Assembly (NCBI GenBank): GCA_035531675.1
Contig: DATKSL010000008.1
Span: 1,982 to 65,981, forward strand
Direction: 5' to 3'
Length of the DNA: 64,000 bases
From: Candidatus Binataceae bacterium
Lineage (GTDB): Bacteria > Desulfobacterota > Binatia > Binatales > Binataceae
The translations under genes and the position numbers were made by a program. Shown here one piece after another: positions 2,046-44,388 of this stretch. The notes below the pieces were generated by a model, which saw nothing but the letters and a program-made list of their open reading frames with translations, searched no databases and had not been told where the DNA came from. How positions within the stretch are numbered: the first letter of the stretch is position 1; each line of letters starts with the position of its first letter.

Positions 2046-2588
2046 TCACCGCGGTATCGGCGTCAATTTCGAATTGGTCGCGGCGGCCGGCGCGAAGCTC
2101 GGCGCGCCACCGGCGCCGCCCTTCTGTGAGAACTCGCCGGTCACCGGCGCTACCGTCAGTATCGAGCTGACCATCCCGCTTTCGCTTCTCAGGTAGGCGG
2201 TCGACGGCGCGGGCGTATAGACCAGCACCGGCACGACTCCTTCCAGCTGGAAAATCCTGAGCGGATTGAATCCGGTCGGCTGATTGACGGTACCCAGGCT
2301 CACCGCTTCCCGGCCGATCACGACGATTTCGGGTACGAAGATCTTTCCGCGCTCGCCGCGCAGGCTGTAGCTTCCCGGCGGCAGGTCAGCCTGGAAAGCG
2401 CCATGGTTGCTGGTCGGCGCCATGTAGATGTCGCGGGTGGCGTGGTTCTGGAAATGGAGCTGACGGCCTGCGATCTGTCCGCCAGGATCGGAGAGCACTC
2501 CGCTCACCTGAGCCGCGCGAACATTGAAACCGCCGCAGAGCAGCGCGAGGATGGTGACGAGGACCGGGATCGAACTTTTTCGCATCAC
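2046..2588 (-). CDS. secreted carboxypeptidase-regulatory-like (beta-sandwich) domain protein
   Basis: N-terminal signal peptide (MMRKSSIPVLVTILALLCGGFNVRAAQ), then a G/S-rich beta-sandwich-like segment (GSYSLRGERGKIFVPEIVV). GTG at 2588 or ATG at 2585 could be the start. Confidence 0.55.
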   Translation of the reverse strand: MMRKSSIPVLVTILALLCGGFNVRAAQVSGVLSDPGGQIAGRQLHFQNHATRDIYMAPTSNHGAFQADLPPGSYSLRGERGKIFVPEIVVIGREAVSLGTVNQPTGFNPLRIFQLEGVVPVLVYTPAPSTAYLRSESGMVSSILTVAPVTGEFSQKGGAGGAPSFAPAAATNSKLTPIPR

Positions 2589-2679
2589 GCTACCGCTCCC
2601 AAGGGTTCATCGACACGCGCTTGATTTCATATCGCGGCGGCGCTCCAAAATCTATTCCGGAATACGACAGGAGGAAAGC

Positions 2680-3030
2680 ATGGCACGCATCACAATCTAC
2701 CATAACCCGGGCTGAGGACAGTCGCGCGGCGCTCATCGAATCCTGAGCGACCGCGGCGTCGAGTTCGACGCCATCGAATACTTGAAGCATCCACTCGACC
2801 GCGCCACGCTGGTGCGGATCCTTACGATGCTCGAGTCGCCGCCGGCCGAACTGGTGCGCAAGGACAAGCGCTTCGCCGAGCTCGGACTCAAGGCTGAGGA
2901 TTACGTCGATCGCGACCCGGTGATCGAGCTGCTGCTGAAACATCCGGAGCTGATGCAACGACCGATTGTGATTCGCGGCCAGCGCGCGATTATCGCGCGG
3001 CCCGGCGAGAAAGTGCTGGAGCTGCTGTAG
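2680..3030 (+). CDS. arsC: ArsC-family (glutaredoxin-type arsenate reductase-like) protein with in-frame UGA at the catalytic Cys position; candidate selenoprotein
   Basis: AGGAGG (2669-2674) precedes ATG 2680. The frame reads MARITIYHNPG-TGA(2713-2715)-GQSRGAHRILSDRGVEF... and continues uninterrupted to TAG 3028-3030. Full-length resemblance to R773 ArsC (ITIYHNPACGTSRN ... RPIV ... RP.E.VL..L). The ORF track shows only fragments 2524..2715 and 2782..3030 in this same frame. Confidence 0.75.
2725..2755 (+). promoter_or_regulatory. candidate bacterial SECIS hairpin downstream of the ArsC UGA
   Basis: CGCGGCGCUCA / loop UCGAAUCC / UGAGCG-A-CCGCG. This is 11 bp with one bulged A, starting after a 9-nt spacer from UGA 2713-2715. 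Confidence 0.45.
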
Positions 3031-3032
3031 CG

Positions 3033-3758
3033 CTAGCGCACCGTGATCGGGATGCGCAGATCGAATTCCGAGGCCACCGCCACGCCGTTGCGCATCGCCG
3101 GGAAGAAGCGCCACTGCTTGAGCGTATCGATCAGGATGGCGTTGAGCGACGGATTATCAGTCGGCTTGGTCAGCGCCACTTCGACCGTGCCGTCGGGCGC
3201 AACCTTGAAATGCGCGACCGCGACGGCGTTGAAGATTTCGTCGCGCAGATCGTCGGGAATCGCCGGCGTCGGCGCGTAGATCGCGCGGGCGCCGGCGTTG
3301 TCGCTGCCCAGTCCAGCGCCCGATCCGCTGCCGCTGCCGCCGCTGACTCCGGGACGTGCGGCGCGGCTCGGCGCAGCGGCGGCCGGCGGCGTCTCGACGT
3401 GCTTCGCGGTGCCGTTAGCCGACGGCGGCGCCAACGGCATCACCGGCTTGGGCGGCGCCCGGTGATGAACCGGATGAAACACGTGCGGATGGGGCCGCAC
3501 GATCGGTTTCGGCGTGGCCGGCACGCGGGCCGGCGCCGGCGCCGCCGGCCCGCCCTGCAGGCCGGGCCGCGGCAGCTCGACGATCCGCGCCTGCACGGGA
3601 GTCAATTCGGGCGGCGGTGGCGCGGTCCGCTCCAGGAGCCGTGAAAATCCGAACAGGATAGCGGTCCAAAGGACCACCGCCAGCGGCACGATCCAGAGCA
3701 GGCGCCGCCGCGGATCGTCGAAGTCGAACGGCGCGGCCGCAGTGGCGCCGTCTTTCAT
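3033..3758 (-). CDS. tonB: energy transducer TonB
   Basis: N-terminal membrane anchor, Pro-rich spacer (PPPPELTP, PAPAPARVPATPKP) and a TonB C-terminal domain. The start overlaps the exbD stop. Confidence 0.8.
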   Translation of the reverse strand: MKDGATAAAPFDFDDPRRRLLWIVPLAVVLWTAILFGFSRLLERTAPPPPELTPVQARIVELPRPGLQGGPAAPAPARVPATPKPIVRPHPHVFHPVHHRAPPKPVMPLAPPSANGTAKHVETPPAAAAPSRAARPGVSGGSGSGSGAGLGSDNAGARAIYAPTPAIPDDLRDEIFNAVAVAHFKVAPDGTVEVALTKPTDNPSLNAILIDTLKQWRFFPAMRNGVAVASEFDLRIPITVR

Positions 3759-4156
3759 TGGCGCCGCACCGCGATCAGAAAATGTTCCACCCCGGCGCGC
3801 CGCGCCTGGAGCATCGCCTGCACCACGATTCCCTCCGGCGCCGCGCTGTCGGCATTCACCACCACCCCGGGGTCGTGCGGGCTCAGCATCGGCCGGAGCG
3901 TCGCCGCCATCGTTTCCAGCGTGACCGGGGTCTTGTCGAGGAACAGCTTGGCGTCGCGGGTGACGGTCAGCGTGACCGGTTCGCGATGATTCAGGTTCGG
4001 TGCGTCGCCCTGCGGGAGATTGACCCGCAGCGAGTTGAGACTCTGCATCGACAGCGACGCCAGCATGAAGGTCACCAGCAGAAAGAACATCACATCGATC
4101 ATCGGGATGATCTCGATGCGGCCGCGGCGATAACTTCGCGCCCTGCGGAGTTTCAT
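3755..4156 (-). CDS. exbD: biopolymer transporter ExbD/TolR
   Basis: 133 aa starting MKLRRARSYRRGRIEIIPMIDVMFFLLVTFML (typical ExbD N-terminus), ATG at 4154-4156. The longer track ORF (to 4570) is an Arg/Gly-rich extension overlapping exbB. Confidence 0.85.
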   Translation of the reverse strand: MKLRRARSYRRGRIEIIPMIDVMFFLLVTFMLASLSMQSLNSLRVNLPQGDAPNLNHREPVTLTVTRDAKLFLDKTPVTLETMAATLRPMLSPHDPGVVVNADSAAPEGIVVQAMLQARRAGVEHFLIAVRRQ

Positions 4157-4158
4157 CG

Positions 4159-4845
4159 TCAGGCTCGCCCGCCGCGCGTCGATAGCGGCTCCAGCGGCGC
4201 TACCTTGCCAGGCTCGCCGCCTTCCTGATCGAGCCGGATATGGTCGACCAGGCGCGAGCCGAGGCGTTCCATGCTGTCGAGCGCCTGCGACTGTACGCGG
4301 GCGAAGAAGTTGAAGCCGAACAGCGCGAAGATCGCAATCAGCAGGCCGAGCGCGGTCGAGATCAAAGCCTCGGCCACACCCGCAGTAACCTGGGTTGGCG
4401 CCACCAGGCCCGAGCCGCCGATCACCTTGAAGGCCCCCATCATGCCGGTGATGGTCCCCAGCAGACCCATCAGCGGCGCCGCCGTCACGATCGTCTCCAG
4501 CATCCACAGACCGCGGCTCAGCGTCCGTTCGATGCTGCCGGCCTCGTCGCCGGCGCGCGCTTCCACCCACCAGGCCGGTTGATGGTGATTCTTCGTAATC
4601 ACCCCCAGAAAGCGGTTATAAGCGTTGTGCGCGCTCAGCCCCTCGAGCTGACGCTCGAGCTGGTCCCAGGCAAAGCCGTAGGTCGCGACCAGCGCCGGCA
4701 CCGCGGCCGGCAGCCGCAGGCATCGGCGGTAGGCCACCGCGCGGTCCAGGATGATGATAAACGCCAGCACCCCGACCGCCAGCAGCGGATAGACCATCGG
4801 CCCGCCGTAACTCAGGGCCTCCCAGGCGCCGGCTATACCGGGCAT
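4159..4845 (-). CDS. exbB: MotA/TolQ/ExbB proton channel protein
   Basis: 228 aa with three TM segments and the conserved LGLLGTITGMMGAF ... AEALISTALGL motif region. Confidence 0.85.
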   Translation of the reverse strand: MPGIAGAWEALSYGGPMVYPLLAVGVLAFIIILDRAVAYRRCLRLPAAVPALVATYGFAWDQLERQLEGLSAHNAYNRFLGVITKNHHQPAWWVEARAGDEAGSIERTLSRGLWMLETIVTAAPLMGLLGTITGMMGAFKVIGGSGLVAPTQVTAGVAEALISTALGLLIAIFALFGFNFFARVQSQALDSMERLGSRLVDHIRLDQEGGEPGKVAPLEPLSTRGGRA

Positions 4846-4959
4846 AGGATGCCCTCCCCGGCTCGGCGATACCGCTTGAATCGATTAGTCATTGATGGAT
4901 TCCTCACACTACTCAGTTTGACTACTAACGTATCATCGACAGAATAAGCTATTTTTCTT

Positions 4960-7371
4960 CTAATGCGTGGCCGCGGATGCGGACCAGGGGAAGTACCACT
5001 TGACTCCAGCGTAAACGGCTCTGCGCGGGCCGTACTGCGGGGCGAATACCCCAATCCCCGAGCCGCTGCGCAGCTGGTAAATCCAGTCGCCCAGATTCAC
5101 TGCCACCAGTCGCGTATCGAACCGTCCGACCCGCGGGATCGTCAGGCTTTTGACGATACCGGCATTGAACTGGACATAGAAGGGCTGATTACCGGTATTG
5201 GCGAAACCGCTGCGCAGGCCGCTGGCGTAATTGCCGTCGAGGGTGAGCAGAAAGCCGCCGAGGTTGTAGGCGGTTCCCCAGGAAGCGGTATAAGTCTGGT
5301 CGTGATCAAGGAATACATAGTGCGATTTGATATAGGCGAGCTCGGCGGGGTCGAACAGAAATTGATCCGAAACGATATTAGTTCCCTGCGCCACCGAGTA
5401 TGCGAAGTTAGCATAGGCCGTGAGCTTTTTGAGATTGAGCGAGGTGGTTAATTCGACTCCGTACTGGCGGCCCTTGTCATAGTTGAAAGGAGTATAGATC
5501 AGGGTCGGTCCGAACTGGCCTTCGTCGATCAGATCGCTCGACTTCTTGTAGTAGCTATCGAGATTCAGCTTGAGCCCGTGCGGAAGCTTCTGCGTCGCAC
5601 CGACGTCGAAGTAATGGGCGCGCTCGGGCGAGATGGTGGAATCGCGCGTCACCGCGGGCTCGTTGGTAGTGCCGGCAAACTTGCCGATATCCTCGCCCGA
5701 TACCGCTTCGAGCGGCGGCGGCGTGAAGTAGCGCGCGTAGGCCGCGTGCAGCGCGGTGCGCTCGAAAAGCTGGTAGGCGACCGCCACCCGCGGACTGGCC
5801 TGGTCGGAGCGGGTGAGGCCGTCGTAGAGGTCGAAGCGCACCCCGTAGTTGATGGTCAGCTTCGGCAGCGGACGCCATTCGTCCTGCAGGTAGATGCCAT
5901 AAAGCCACGCGACTTCGGCGCCGTTGTCGACTACGTTGATCGGGACGTCGCTGGTCTGGAAGCCTGGGCCGCCGGGAAAGACCCGCGCGTGATTATCGAT
6001 CTCGGCGCGCTCGCCGGTGAAATAGTAACCGGCCCGGACCGTATGATGCGCCCAGCCGCGCCATGTAAAATCGCCCTCGGAGCCGCTCACCCAATCGCCG
6101 CGAAAGACGCGCGAGGCAACTCCATTATAGATCAGGTCGCCGGCCGGGTCGGGATGAAAGGACAGCGTCGAGTAACGATTGAAAACTGATACCTGGTAGT
6201 CGATGTCATTCGGCAGCACGCCCTGCAGCGCCACGACACCGTAGTAATTCTGCTCGAATTGAGTTTCCTGAAGTCCTGCCGAAGGATAGTCGCTGATCCC
6301 GGACAACATGAAGGCGGGCGACTGGTCCGGATTTGCCGGGATTTGAAAGTGCGACACATTGAAGCCGCCGAACGCGGCCAGGCGCGTCGTGGGGCTCAGA
6401 AAATACGACAGATAGCCGAACCCGTTGCCCTGGTTGGTATCGTCGTGGATCGCCTCGGGACCGGGCGTGGGGGGCGCGAGCCCGCGATTATTCTGCAGAT
6501 AATAACCGGTCGCGTAGTAGTCCAGCTTGCCCTTGGTGCCGCCGACCTCGAAGTTCGGTTGCAGGGTGCCGCGCTGGCCGCCGTACGTCTCGAGGTCGCC
6601 GCCCTGCAGGCTCGCGCCACTCTTGGTCTGGATCTCGACCACCGCCGCGGTGTGATAGCCATACTGCGCCGGCAGCGCGCCTTCCAGCAGTGAGATGCTG
6701 CGGGCGAAGCGCGGGCTGAAGGTCTCCGAAAATCCGGAGGTGATACCCTCGGGGATTTCGATGCCGTTGAGGCGGTACTGGATGTCCGCATGTTCGCCGC
6801 GGATATGCAGCCCGCCGTTGGAGTCCTGCGCGACGCCTGGGGCCTGCAGCAGCACGCTGCTCATCGAGCTATTGGCGCCCTGCGGCAGCTCCTTGACCGC
6901 CTGCTCGCTGAAGCGGTAGACGCTACCGCCGGTTTCGGGACTGAGCCCGTTGCGCGCGCGGTTGAGCCGCTTGGCGACCACCGCCAGGCTCAACGCCTGC
7001 TCGGCGGCGAGCGCGACCGTGATCGGCTTGGCATTCGAGCCGCCGACCGTGACGATCGCTACTCCGGGCTTGAAGCCGCCGTGATGGGCGTCGAGCTCGT
7101 AGGTGCCGTGCGCCACCGCCGCGAAGCTGAAGTGGCCGTGGGAATCGGTGACGCCGCGCCTAAGCGCCCGCCCGTTGGCGCCCTTGAGCGTCACCTTCGC
7201 CCCCGCGATCGGCCGTCCCAAAGAATCCTCGACGGTACCGCTCAGGCCTCGCGATGGCCGAGGGTTGGTTGCGGCCGCCGCAGCGATCGAACCGGTCATC
7301 TGCAGCAAAATCATCGATGCCCCGACCAGCAAGGCAATAACTTTATGCGTCATCAGCTCCCACCCGCGCAT
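4960..7371 (-). CDS. TonB-dependent receptor with N-terminal carboxypeptidase-regulatory-like domain
   Basis: 803 aa with signal peptide, CarboxypepD_reg-like segment (GTVEDSLGRPIAGAKVTLKG...HGHFSF), plug and beta-barrel regions, and an aromatic C-terminal end (VKWYFPW...). Confidence 0.85.
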   Translation of the reverse strand: MRGWELMTHKVIALLVGASMILLQMTGSIAAAAATNPRPSRGLSGTVEDSLGRPIAGAKVTLKGANGRALRRGVTDSHGHFSFAAVAHGTYELDAHHGGFKPGVAIVTVGGSNAKPITVALAAEQALSLAVVAKRLNRARNGLSPETGGSVYRFSEQAVKELPQGANSSMSSVLLQAPGVAQDSNGGLHIRGEHADIQYRLNGIEIPEGITSGFSETFSPRFARSISLLEGALPAQYGYHTAAVVEIQTKSGASLQGGDLETYGGQRGTLQPNFEVGGTKGKLDYYATGYYLQNNRGLAPPTPGPEAIHDDTNQGNGFGYLSYFLSPTTRLAAFGGFNVSHFQIPANPDQSPAFMLSGISDYPSAGLQETQFEQNYYGVVALQGVLPNDIDYQVSVFNRYSTLSFHPDPAGDLIYNGVASRVFRGDWVSGSEGDFTWRGWAHHTVRAGYYFTGERAEIDNHARVFPGGPGFQTSDVPINVVDNGAEVAWLYGIYLQDEWRPLPKLTINYGVRFDLYDGLTRSDQASPRVAVAYQLFERTALHAAYARYFTPPPLEAVSGEDIGKFAGTTNEPAVTRDSTISPERAHYFDVGATQKLPHGLKLNLDSYYKKSSDLIDEGQFGPTLIYTPFNYDKGRQYGVELTTSLNLKKLTAYANFAYSVAQGTNIVSDQFLFDPAELAYIKSHYVFLDHDQTYTASWGTAYNLGGFLLTLDGNYASGLRSGFANTGNQPFYVQFNAGIVKSLTIPRVGRFDTRLVAVNLGDWIYQLRSGSGIGVFAPQYGPRRAVYAGVKWYFPWSASAATH

Positions 7372-20059: not shown

Positions 20060-20742
20060 AAACACCATCGTCCGGCGGCGCACGCAGCCGCCCGATCGTC
20101 GCCATCGACGGACCGGTCGGGGCCGGCAAGTCGACCGTGGCGCGGCGGCTGGCGCAGGCGCTCGGCTTCGACTACCTGAACACCGGCGCGATGTATCGGG
20201 CGGTGGCGCTGGCGGCGCGCAACCTGGGTATCGCGCCCGACGATCCGCAGCTCGGGCAGAAGCTCGGCGCGCTGCTGCGCTCGATGACGATTTCATTCGC
20301 CGGGGATCGTCTGCTGCTCGACGGCCGCGACGTGAGCGACGAGCTGAGCGCTCCCGAGATCGGCGACCTGGCCTCGCGCTTGTCGACCCTGCAGGTGGTG
20401 CGCGACGCGATGCGCGAGCTGCAGCGCCAGGCCGGCGCGCCGGGCGGGGTGGTGATGGAGGGGCGCGATATCGGCACCGCGATTTTTCCTGATGCCGAGT
20501 TCAAATTCTTTCTCGACGCCGACGTCACGGTGCGCGCGCGCCGGCGTCATCAGGAGCTGGCCGCCAAGGGCGTTCAAACCGATTTCGACGAGGTGCTCGC
20601 GCAGCTCCGGGAACGCGACCGGCGCGACCGCGGGCGCGAGCTCGCACCGCTTAAAAAGGCAGCTGACGCGACGCTGGTCGATTCGAGCGGACTCACCGTC
20701 GACGAGGTTGTCAAGCTCATGAAGCAGCAGGTTGCGGGTTGA
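20056..20742 (+). CDS. cmk: (d)CMP kinase
   Basis: IAIDGPVGAGKSTVARRLA P-loop, plus MEGRDIGT and RD.RD motifs. The start overlaps the tyrA stop. Confidence 0.9.
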   Translation: MKTPSSGGARSRPIVAIDGPVGAGKSTVARRLAQALGFDYLNTGAMYRAVALAARNLGIAPDDPQLGQKLGALLRSMTISFAGDRLLLDGRDVSDELSAPEIGDLASRLSTLQVVRDAMRELQRQAGAPGGVVMEGRDIGTAIFPDAEFKFFLDADVTVRARRRHQELAAKGVQTDFDEVLAQLRERDRRDRGRELAPLKKAADATLVDSSGLTVDEVVKLMKQQVAG

Positions 20743-20829
20743 GGCGCGCAGGTAAAGGCCTTGCAACCCTGCTAGACTGGTTGTAAGCATTCGTCATAGC
20801 CTCGAAGTTCTCGCGGAAGGTCCCACTAA

Positions 20830-42167: not shown

Positions 42168-43229
42168 TCAGCCGCGCTTGGGCTCCGGGATGGTGGCTGC
42201 GACTTTGATCGGCAATTGAAAGCGGATGATCTGCGGCGCCTCGCATTCGGTGTCGCTGCATTGCTGCAGATCGACGGTTCCGGCCAGCGTGTAGTCGGCC
42301 GGCTGCAGCGGAAACTTGAGCAACACGCGGCCGGCGGCGGTGAAGTTGCCGGCGTGAACCGGGAGCGTCTCGCCCAGCGCCTCGAAGCGCTTGGTTTGCG
42401 GCGGCGGAAATTTGAAACTGTAGCTCGCCACGTGATGGGTCTCGAAGCGAATCGCGGTCGCGGTGTAACTGCCGGGAACCGGCGCGCCATAGATATGCCA
42501 TCCGGGGGCGATCGAAAATTCCGCGCTCACACCCAGCTCCTGCCCGCCGAAGGCTTGGGCGGCCGAGAGGCCGATGCGAATCCCGACGTGACCGCTCTTG
42601 AGTTCGACAGCGGCGCTCGAACCGGCGCCCGCCGTACGCATCGCCACTTCCGAGCCGGTCACGCGATGCTGATAATTGGGGACGAAAAATTTCTCGCGCA
42701 CCGTACCGTCGGGTGCGAGCAGGTATTCGACCGGATGCGGCACGCCATAGGAGCGCATATCGGGCAGCATGTTTTCGTTGAACAGCCCGAAACGGCGAAT
42801 CACCGCGCTACCCTGGTCCGAGAGCAGCGGGTAGCCGATATGGTTAAGCTCGCTGAAGGTTTTGAGAATCTCCTGCGAGTCGTAGCTCACCCCGACGATC
42901 TTGATTCCAGACCGCTCCAGGAGAGCGCGCGACTGTTCCAGCTCGACGAGCTGGTTGCGGCAAAACGGTCACCAGTCGGCGCTGCGATAAAACACCAGCA
43001 GCAGGCCGTCGGGACCGGTCAGATCGCCGAGCGCGCGCGCTTTGCCATTCTGATCCGGCAGCGTGAACTCAGGCACCCGCGTACCGATCTCGGGGCCGGT
43101 GGTGAAGCCCTCGTTGGTGACCGCGACGAAGCGCGTGTAAACCTCGGGCGGCACCGGCTGACCGCTGGCCCGCAGCCGATAGAATTCGCGCATGATACGA
43201 GTCTTGGTTTCGAGATCGGTGGTGCTCAT
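42168..43229 (-). CDS. redoxin (AhpC/TSA-thioredoxin fold) fused to a DsbD-N-terminal-like domain, with in-frame UGA giving a U-x-x-C motif; candidate selenoprotein
   Basis: GGAGGA 10 nt upstream of ATG 43227-43229. The frame reads ...LLLVFYRSADW-TGA(42969-42971)-PFCRNQLVELEQS...GVSYDSQEIL... and continues in frame to 42168. Track ORFs 42969..43331 and 42168..42890 are in the same frame, 26 sense codons apart. The C-terminal GWHIYG ... LQQCSDTECEAP matches the DsbD-alpha/PF11412-like domain. Confidence 0.7.
42939..42953 (-). promoter_or_regulatory. candidate SECIS hairpin downstream of the redoxin UGA
   Basis: mRNA CAGCUC-GUC-GAGCUG (6-bp stem, loop containing GU), 15 nt after the UGA. A second small hairpin (CGCUC-UCCUG-GAGCG) lies at 42913-42927. 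Confidence 0.35.
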
Positions 43230-43794: not shown

Positions 43795-44388
43795 TTACAG
43801 CCGCCGGCCGACGGTCAGTGTCTCACGCAGCGGCGGTGCGATTTCGGCGAACCATTCCTCGCCTTCGAGGCCGAGCGCCGCGGCCATGCGGGTGACGAAC
43901 ACCCGGTACGAGGCGTTGAGCGCGATGTCGAGGATATTGACGTCGGAGAAGCCGTGCTCGCGCAGCCCCGTGATGTCGGCTTCGGAGATGCGCTCCGGGT
44001 CGAGTGCGATCTTGGCGGCATAGTCGAGCATCGCCACATCCGCCGCCGACAGACCGGCGTCGTGATAGTTGCAGGCCAGGGCGCTTACCTGGTCGGCGGT
44101 GGCTTTCCCGCTCTTCACCATCAGACCGCCGTGGGCGACGGCGCAGTAGGTGCACTTGAGCAGCGCCGCGACCACCAGCGCGATGCGCTCCTCGCGTTCG
44201 CGGCCGAGCGAGGTGCCGCCGAAATGCGATCGCTTGGCGAGCAGTTCCAGCGCCTCGACGGCCCCCGGTCTGAGGCTCGCCAGCTGGCGCATCTTGGGCA
44301 CGAACGGCATGGTTTTCAGGATGCCGTCGTAGACTTCTTTGAGCTGCCCGCTGGCTTCACTCGGGGGAACGGTTTTTATCCAGGCCAT
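43795..44388 (-). CDS. AhpD-like / carboxymuconolactone decarboxylase family peroxidase-related protein
   Basis: 197 aa. The N-terminus MAWIKTVPPSEASGQLKEVYDGI and the CxxC motif KCTYCAVAHG are typical of the peroxidase-related CMD subfamily. Confidence 0.75.
   Translation of the reverse strand: MAWIKTVPPSEASGQLKEVYDGILKTMPFVPKMRQLASLRPGAVEALELLAKRSHFGGTSLGREREERIALVVAALLKCTYCAVAHGGLMVKSGKATADQVSALACNYHDAGLSAADVAMLDYAAKIALDPERISEADITGLREHGFSDVNILDIALNASYRVFVTRMAAALGLEGEEWFAEIAPPLRETLTVGRRL

Follow-up and report, generated by a model that had tools for sequence, protein, structure and literature searches.

A predicted selenocysteine-containing ArsC-type reductase in Binataceae and a conserved RNA hairpin linked to its in-frame UGA codon

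Results

An arsC-type reading frame continues through a UGA codon

We analysed a 64,000-nucleotide stretch of DNA from Candidatus Binataceae bacterium (hereafter the window: positions 1,982 to 65,981 of contig DATKSL010000008.1, assembly GCA_035531675.1). The gene in question is a short arsC-type frame near its left end, in which a UGA codon occupies the position of the catalytic cysteine. Starting at ATG 2680 (window numbering is used throughout), 11 sense codons (MARITIYHNPG) lead to a TGA at 2713-2715, which is followed by 104 more codons in the same frame and by TAG 3028-3030. An initial annotation, made from the sequence alone, had reported the Shine-Dalgarno sequence, the ATG, the MARITIYHNPG frame, the TGA and the TAG, and all of these coordinates were reproduced here (Table 1). 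With the UGA read as selenocysteine (Sec, U), the predicted product is MARITIYHNPG-U-GQSRG...EKVLELL. The public database holds a 67-amino acid fragment at 2827-3030 for this locus; the initial annotation was right that automatic callers shorten the gene, but had expected an 82-amino acid product at 2782-3030. TGA is the stop codon of 36 of the 59 genes called on the same contig and the commonest stop there. UGA is not globally reassigned and serves as a normal stop on this contig, so that any recoding must be local. An open reading frame of 174 amino acids on the opposite strand (2590-3114) was regarded as an artefact of the GC-rich sequence.

Table 1. Coordinates of the arsC-type locus and of a second candidate selenoprotein gene in the window
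Feature	Position	Strand	Basis or remark
Shine-Dalgarno sequence AGGAGG	2669-2674	+	5 nt 5' of the start codon; read off the sequence
arsC-type coding sequence, 116 codons + TAG, codon 12 = UGA (predicted Sec)	2680-3030	+	Translation; PF03960; TIGR00014; R773 ArsC collinearity
Proposed selenocysteine codon UGA at the catalytic Cys12 position, motif U-G-Q-S = UxxS	2713-2715	+	Homologue column
Hairpin 1 (hp1), hairpin of the initial annotation, proposed structured spacer	2726-2754	+	Fold; synonymous-recoding test
Hairpin 2 (hp2), GGCGUCG-AGUU-CGACGCC, proposed SelB-binding core of the selenocysteine insertion sequence (SECIS)	2755-2772	+	Covariation; synonymous constraint
AhpC/TSA (Prx-like) domain + DsbD_N domain fusion, 353 codons	42168-43229	-	Shine-Dalgarno sequence GGAGG 43245-43241, ATG 43229
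In-frame TGA of the Prx-like gene, ...FYRSADW-U-PFCRNQL	42971-42969	-	W-U-P-F-C
Candidate SECIS hairpin of the Prx-like gene, CCAGCUC-GUC-GAGCUGG, 7 bp, spacing 21	42954-42938	-	Fits the canonical bacterial SECIS model

Profile searches with this protein were run with the U replaced by C. The Pfam family ArsC (PF03960) was matched over residues 7-114 (9.4e-13, 48.7 bits against a gathering cut-off of 24), and the NCBIfam equivalog TIGR00014 was matched over its full length (product 4-116 on profile 1-114), scoring 100 bits against 49 for the next-best NCBIfam family, Spx/MgsR. The initial annotation had stated that the product is collinear with the R773 ArsC arsenate reductase and that the TGA falls on Cys12. 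The alignment with R773 ArsC (PDB 1JZW, 1I9D) bears this out, pairing residues 1-116 with 1-116 (E ~1e-18) and the TGA with Cys12. In the 1JZW alignment R60 (LVRKD), R94 (MQRP) and R107 (IARP) fall on the corresponding arginines of R773 ArsC, Arg60/Arg94/Arg107, which we take to be its oxyanion-binding or active-site arginines. The two proteins (PDB 1I9D, 1J9B, 1JZW for R773) thus share the HNPxC(U)GxSR loop, the three arginines, the length class and collinearity from end to end, at about 40% identity as judged by eye; they differ in the nucleophile, cysteine at position 12 of R773 ArsC and predicted Sec here. The residues U12-G13-Q14-S15 form a UxxS motif in this TIGR00014-type protein. Because the active-site loop and all three arginines are kept, the product would be an arsenate reductase of the R773 type, coupled to glutaredoxin and using a selenolate as nucleophile.

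Sec and Cys forms across related loci

A genome sample limited to one genome per species yielded 70 related loci. Together with the window and two earlier contigs, 67 were typed at codon 12 and six were unplaced. The codon is TGA in 26 of the 67 (window included) and TGC or TGT in the other 41, so that both forms coexist at this column, a point the initial annotation had raised as a check on its proposal. A second sample came from metagenomes, by means of a pattern consisting of a TGAGG anchor and two distant protein motifs, which is blind to hairpins. It matched at least 119 stretches, and all those listed read in frame through the TGA as HNPG*G or a close variant. Genomes and metagenomes together thus hold at least 145 loci with a TGA at this codon (Sec forms below, by prediction). 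For the RNA comparisons we used 129 distinct TGA-form sequences, from the genomes and the metagenome matches listed, and the 41 Cys forms.

The codon is not a peculiarity of one assembly. The window is part of a contig of 116 kb, and its nearest homologues agree in pointing to Binataceae (candidate phylum Binatota). A metagenome stretch from an independent assembly (L105) is identical to the window, and the same region is on record in several independent ENA and JGI assemblies; with the TGA also present in many relatives, this rules against a sequencing error at 2713-2715, one of the refuting outcomes the initial annotation had named. The closest full-length homologues, P0001 (85% identity, HNPGCGQSR) and P0002 (82%, HNPSCGQSR), are Cys forms, and two N-terminally shortened database calls (P0048 and P0110, 86-87% identity) have a TGA at the same codon. 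Coding constraint is seen on both sides of it. Upstream, codons 8-11 keep H-N-P-G fixed while their third positions vary synonymously, from which it follows that the 11 N-terminal codons are translated in frame; across codons 13-65 the protein is likewise conserved and synonymous variation is present. The gene showed no further disruption in any of the 26 TGA genome loci or of the metagenome stretches listed (at least 119). Sec and Cys forms are interspersed in a neighbour-joining tree, with at least six transitions between them.

A covarying hairpin downstream of the UGA

Folding of 2713-2775 predicts two adjacent hairpins with a combined energy of -30.9 kcal/mol over 63 nt (z = -2.6 against dinucleotide shuffles). 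In the first, hp1, 2726-2735 pairs with 2744-2754 to form a stem of 10 bp, from which A2750 bulges, capped by a loop of 8 nt, UCGAAUCC; its upper stem has 6 bp and its loop begins 20 nt after the UGA. The initial annotation had described a SECIS-like hairpin of 11 bp with one bulge at 2725-2755. The hairpin is real, but the eleventh pair, C2725-G2755, is in competition with the outermost pair of the second hairpin, hp2, which hp1 abuts directly with no linker, and it is hp2 that proved to be the conserved, UGA-specific element. This second hairpin has a 7-bp stem and a tetraloop at 2762-2765 that includes G2763 and U2764 (-12.0 kcal/mol). The loop lies at +50 to +53 relative to the UGA and begins 46 nt after it.

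The sole consensus structure returned by RNAalifold for the 26 TGA forms from genomes is hp2. In that alignment it is 97.3% paired and shows compensatory changes in four of its seven pairs. None of 500 shuffles reached either the observed pairing or the observed covariation, and sliding the register lowers pairing to 13-69%. Across the 129 distinct Sec forms pairing is 97.7%; the pair +45/+58 occurs as C-G (65), U-A (48) and G-C (14), and the pair +44/+59 as G-C (48), A-U (44) and G-U (37). The loop is nearly invariant: AGUU in 117 sequences, CGUG in nine, AGGU in two and ACUU in one. Codons 27-30 (GTC GAG TTC GAC), which encode the inner stem and the loop, have a synonymous entropy of about zero, whereas the same amino acids elsewhere in the protein vary in codon (V59, GTC 61/GTG 54; E33, GAA 65/GAG 61; D57, GAC 63/GAT 17). 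In the outer stem, residues 26 and 31 co-vary as codon pairs: GGC/GCC, GGC/GUC, GGU/ACC, GAU/AUC, AAG/CUU and AGU/ACU. This conservation and covariation in the TGA forms runs counter to another refuting outcome put forward initially, pseudogene relatives that carry the stop without a conserved hairpin. A count of the hp2 core motif GTCGNGTNCGAC was rejected as evidence: hp2 is its single occurrence in the window, and 28 of 100 shuffled sequences also yield a match.

In the Cys forms the element is largely missing. All seven pairs are present in only four of the 41, and the AGUU loop as well in L027 alone. The two closest Cys relatives, which share the synteny of the window, have a broken outer stem (AAGAUCG...CGACACC and AGCAUCG...CGAUACC) and have lost one hp1 pair. 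Measured against synonymous recodings, hp2 has excess stability in Sec forms (mean z -2.36) and far less in Cys forms (-0.50).

Some individual loci are informative about the history of the element. L027 has TGC at codon 12, is nested in a Sec clade and retains a perfect hp2 with the AGUU loop; from its sequence it looks like a recent Sec-to-Cys conversion in which the SECIS has not yet decayed. Intermediate hp2 decay is seen in L031 and L044. The Sec subgroup with the CGUG loop (L088, L107, L112 and others; GVACDV) encodes Ala-Cys there (GCG TGC), and the Cys forms L005 and L038 (GVAHDV) have the same stem with a CGCA loop encoding Ala-His (GCG CAC). The two loops differ at their third and fourth positions, and the G-U dinucleotide is lost in the Cys forms. 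TGA-form ArsC genes with the same hp2 are also found in L045 and L047, metagenome-assembled genomes of Acidimicrobiia/Actinomycetota, and in many metagenome loci, such as L081, L096 and L121. The Acidimicrobiia TGA forms lie beside actinobacterial Cys forms in the tree, outside the Binataceae clade; either the Sec form and its SECIS are old, or they have moved between phyla.

The first hairpin behaves differently. Its 3' end falls at +40 to +42 in 123 of the 129 Sec forms (single-sequence folds), while its sequence and register shift from clade to clade and the loop lacks conservation. Cys forms have comparable hairpins, a consequence of the conservation of the encoded SRGA...ER at the protein level. 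Even so, the mean minimum free energy of hp1 is -15.6 kcal/mol in Sec forms against -11.5 in Cys forms (p = 3e-6), and two control segments showed no such difference. When the protein was held fixed and the codons were recoded synonymously, the mean z of hp1 was -1.38 in Sec forms (-2.0 in the window) and -0.23 in Cys forms, again with no difference in a control segment. Because this excess stability over synonymous recodings is confined to Sec forms, both hp1 and hp2 are under RNA-level selection conditional on the UGA.

Fit to the bacterial SECIS model

The accepted model of the bacterial SECIS (bSECIS) places the loop 16-37 nt after the UGA, gives it 3-9 nt and a stem of 4-16 bp, expects a G at loop position 1 or 2 with G or U as the usual next base, and sets the energy at -7.5 kcal/mol or lower; some bacterial selenoprotein genes depart from it (PMC13188914). 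We applied these rules through a simple contiguous-stem implementation. Spacing aside, one hairpin of the window's arsC qualifies, hp2, which agrees with the model in loop and stem size, loop G and energy; 128 of the 129 Sec forms have an NGUN or AGGU loop. A hairpin that qualifies at a spacing of 46 nt is present in 119 of the 129 Sec forms, against three of the 41 Cys forms. Within 16-37 nt, a qualifying hairpin is found in 39 of the 129 Sec forms, at inconsistent positions. In the window hp1 has an acceptable spacing and lacks the loop G. An Rfam scan of the window at gathering thresholds returned a tRNA-Val only, and a permissive scan of 2650-2850 gave a chance match to CC3552 (E = 4.9).

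Compared with the consensus bSECIS as used by bSECISearch, hp2 is alike in loop size, stem, G followed by U, and energy (-12.0), but is set further from the UGA; a second candidate gene on the same contig, encoding a peroxiredoxin-like (Prx-like) protein and described below, fits the consensus fully. The SECIS of E. coli fdhF, whose GGUC tetraloop we re-derived from the K-12 genome at +22 to +25 (spacing 18 nt), resembles hp2 in having a short GC-rich stem and a tetraloop with G-U at its second and third positions, within the coding sequence downstream of the UGA. It differs in that its loop begins at +22 rather than +50, the arsC gene having an extra hairpin of 29 nt in between, and hp2 has no bulged U.

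These features suggest how the element might work. SelB carrying Sec-tRNA(Sec) would bind the N-G-U-N tetraloop of hp2, and on the comparative evidence hp2 is probably the part of the SECIS that SelB binds. When the UGA occupies the A site, hp1 would begin 10 nt downstream, close to the point at which the mRNA should leave the ribosome's entry channel. Folded, hp1 would shorten the linear spacing of 46 nt to about 17 nt (the 10-nt spacer plus the 7-nt 5' strand of the hp2 stem), a distance that might allow SelB, tethered to hp2, to reach the A site. The proposed effective path of about 17 nt is comparable to the 18 nt of fdhF and the 21 nt of the Prx-like gene. We put forward only tentatively the idea that hp1 is such a distance-shortening, folded spacer. 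In the same provisional spirit, the ArsC selenoproteins of Binataceae and of some Acidimicrobiia might use a bipartite SECIS that the accepted model does not describe, consisting of an invariant hp2 and a selected but variable spacer, hp1. The co-variation of residues 26 and 31 (G with A/T/V, D with I/V, K with L) could then have arisen for RNA rather than protein reasons, a suggestion that we hold with similar reserve.

A second candidate selenoprotein gene on the contig

The Prx-like gene, on the opposite strand (Table 1), also reads through an in-frame TGA. The product read in this way gives a full-length AhpC-TSA match (2.5e-26), and full-length homologues have W-C-x-Y-C at the Sec position; the database call is a C-terminal fragment of 240 amino acids. 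Most of the 120 matches listed for the protein are about 250-260 amino acids long and cover ~68-73% of the query. Three shortened homologues were read and all start immediately after the Sec position, and the two shortened-call loci that were inspected, L201 and L202, have a TGA at the same codon. The window gene and those of L201 and L202 each have a hairpin of 7 bp, its loop GUC or GUG, at a spacing of 21, with a compensatory change from G-C to A-U in one of the three. Judged by sequence, the contig carries at least two genes of the Sec/Cys type, which lends independent support to Sec use by this genome, and the pattern of matches suggests a large selenoprotein family that is widely shortened in public protein sets.

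A window-wide scan for in-frame TGA genes, based on third-position GC content and hairpins, gave 60 candidates that were mostly off-frame and missed arsC; it was too noisy because the DNA is GC-rich, and only the Prx-like gene at 42971 was credible. The CMD/AhpD-like family has known Sec forms; its member in the window (43795-44388, minus strand) carries CTYC (CxxC) and is an ordinary Cys form, and was rejected as a selenoprotein. The L201 contig, one of those with a TGA in the Prx-like gene, also holds a GRDB-family fragment (glycine/betaine reductase B) and a FdsABGD-type formate dehydrogenase cluster (20713-20816 and 3050-5893). The GRDB family includes selenoproteins.

Genomic neighbourhood of arsC

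In the window, arsC is followed by a cluster of TonB, ExbB, ExbD and TonB-dependent receptor genes and preceded by a cupin gene and a metallo-beta-lactamase-fold gene. Recurrent neighbours at the 26 Sec-form loci from genomes are mutL, short-chain dehydrogenases, glyoxalase, cupin and TonB/ExbB. Immediately upstream and divergent is a gene for a 180-amino acid protein (2046-2588, minus strand) with a weak, sub-threshold CarboxypepD_reg match. Its homologues (32-75% identity) occupy the same arsC-adjacent position in many Sec-form loci and are the first-listed neighbour in most.

Discussion

We are highly confident that the product of this arsC-type gene is a selenoprotein, and nearly as confident in the fuller assignment of 2680-3030 to a 116-residue glutaredoxin-type ArsC reductase in which the UGA at 2713-2715 would place Sec at the catalytic Cys12 position. 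The initial annotation had reached the same view of a Sec-containing ArsC-family enzyme, and the more than 140 TGA forms, the coding conservation on both sides of the codon, the interspersed Cys forms and the second selenoprotein gene support it.

A lone in-frame stop in an otherwise intact small gene, of which the automatic caller kept only a fragment, is also what one would expect of a pseudogene in decay, or of an error in sequencing or assembly. That explanation is effectively refuted: the identical gene is found in L105 and in independent ENA/JGI contigs, the TGA recurs at the same codon in otherwise undisrupted genes of genomes and metagenomes alike, purifying selection acts on codons 8-11, which vary synonymously, and the hairpin linked to the UGA covaries. 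The UGA might instead be recoded to something other than Sec, either to Cys by a Cys-charged tRNA(Sec)-like tRNA with a SelB-type factor or through low-level near-cognate read-through; certain tRNA(Sec)-like tRNAs have been proposed to insert Cys at UGA in a SelB-dependent manner. We regard this as very improbable. Selenoproteins are typically recognised by just such alternation of Sec and Cys at the catalytic nucleophile, a redoxin selenoprotein gene of the typical UxxC kind, complete with canonical SECIS, lies on the same contig, there is no global reassignment of TGA, and the arsenate reductase family is already catalogued among selenoproteins (PMC1088965; PMC13188914). A further alternative accepts Sec but assigns the SECIS to hp1, leaving hp2 as an accessory or unrelated element such as a stabiliser or a ribosome-pausing structure. 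The position of the hp1 loop, inside the 16-37 nt range, and the greater stability of hp1 in Sec forms than in Cys forms and than in synonymous recodings speak for it. It is nonetheless improbable, given that the hp1 loop is unconserved and that neither of its first two bases in the window (UCGAAUCC) is a G, that the register differs from clade to clade and hp1 is absent from the RNAalifold consensus, that Cys forms have similar hairpins, and that hairpins satisfying every rule in the canonical range are scarce and scattered among Sec forms when set beside hp2.

Several observations weigh against the interpretation that we prefer, a Sec-containing arsenate reductase decoded through hp2 with hp1 as its spacer. 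At 46 nt, hp2 is further from the UGA than the 16-37 nt that the accepted bSECIS model allows. The proposal that hp1 acts as a spacer has a purely geometric basis; a fixed-register 5-bp core of hp1 is only 74% paired, for which reason a claim of covariation was dropped in favour of the per-sequence folds and the recoding test, and the hairpin is weak in a few Sec forms, for example L046. Neither SelA, SelB and SelD (tblastn with E. coli queries) nor tRNA-Sec (ARAGORN) was found in 1.87 Mb of sequence, which consists mostly of syntenic arsC neighbourhoods and is hence little informative. On the side of function, the TIGR00014 score is a near miss, below the equivalog cut-off of 106.05, and no arsR, arsB, acr3, arsA, arsD or arsM gene lies among the flanking genes in the window or in the 25 commonest of 45 neighbour families at the 26 Sec-form loci. 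The initial annotation had remarked on the lack of arsR, arsB and acr3 nearby, and this holds in the window and extends to relatives; R773 ArsC differs from the window gene in this respect too, the latter standing outside any ars operon and slightly under the TIGR00014 cut-off. These last two points would favour a selenoprotein with a role other than arsenate detoxification, as a glutaredoxin-coupled reductase of another oxyanion or thiol, or as a redox sensor like Spx or YffB. We consider such a role unlikely, as arsC is the best family by far (100 bits for TIGR00014 against 49 for Spx/MgsR), R60, R94, R107 and the HNPxU/CxxSR loop are all kept, and stand-alone arsC genes are common. Because no ars genes are nearby, arsenate is proposed as the substrate from active-site conservation only; we lean towards it as the physiological substrate, and the earlier caution that the substrate may not be arsenate is a fair one. 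On the arsenate reductase reading, the selenolate would attack arsenate or a related oxyanion in the pocket of the three arginines, with glutathione and glutaredoxin restoring it, as they do for R773 ArsC.

Proteins of this kind are already known, and the initial annotation had itself mentioned ArsC-like selenoproteins predicted in metagenomic surveys; the window gene adds a member from Binataceae. An arsenate reductase with a UxxS motif was reported in 2005 as a new selenoprotein family from the Sargasso Sea, with 14 sequences (PMC1088965), and a 2026 AEM review lists the arsenate reductase selenoprotein family as TIGR00014 with the motif UxxS (PMC13188914). It is thus an established predicted family. 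The marine members of the 2005 report (Zhang, Fomenko and Gladyshev) resemble the window protein in being of the ArsC/TIGR00014 type with UxxS, in having widespread Cys homologues, in being predicted computationally and in being shortened in databases; they differ in origin, being from marine metagenomes, whereas the window gene is from Binataceae (Binatota) and has a parallel set in Acidimicrobiia. Our literature search found no publication linking Binatota, Binatia or Binataceae with selenoproteins or selenocysteine. What is new is the lineage, Binataceae, and the scale: the genome and metagenome collections searched together yield over 140 TGA forms. New too, judging from the text of the earlier publications, is the comparative evidence for a conserved element that lies beyond the distance limit of the model and behind a second selected hairpin.

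The immediate consequence is for annotation. The arsC gene is on record as 67 amino acids and the second selenoprotein gene as 240, and such shortened calls recur, in two ArsC homologues and in most of the 120 matches listed for the Prx-like protein. Because Sec genes are shortened in this way, the selenoproteome of the soil-dwelling Binatota goes uncounted. The more than 140 natural variants also make a well-controlled comparative case, with a SelB-type hairpin that lies beyond the distance limit of the model behind every bacterial selenoprotein finder. If confirmed, the arrangement would define one non-canonical class of bSECIS, of the kind that recent reviews mention but leave uncharacterised, and would suggest relaxing the spacing rule where a folded insert is present. 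Confirmation would also make the family a natural Sec/Cys series, with at least six switches, in which to ask what selenium gives an arsenate reductase.

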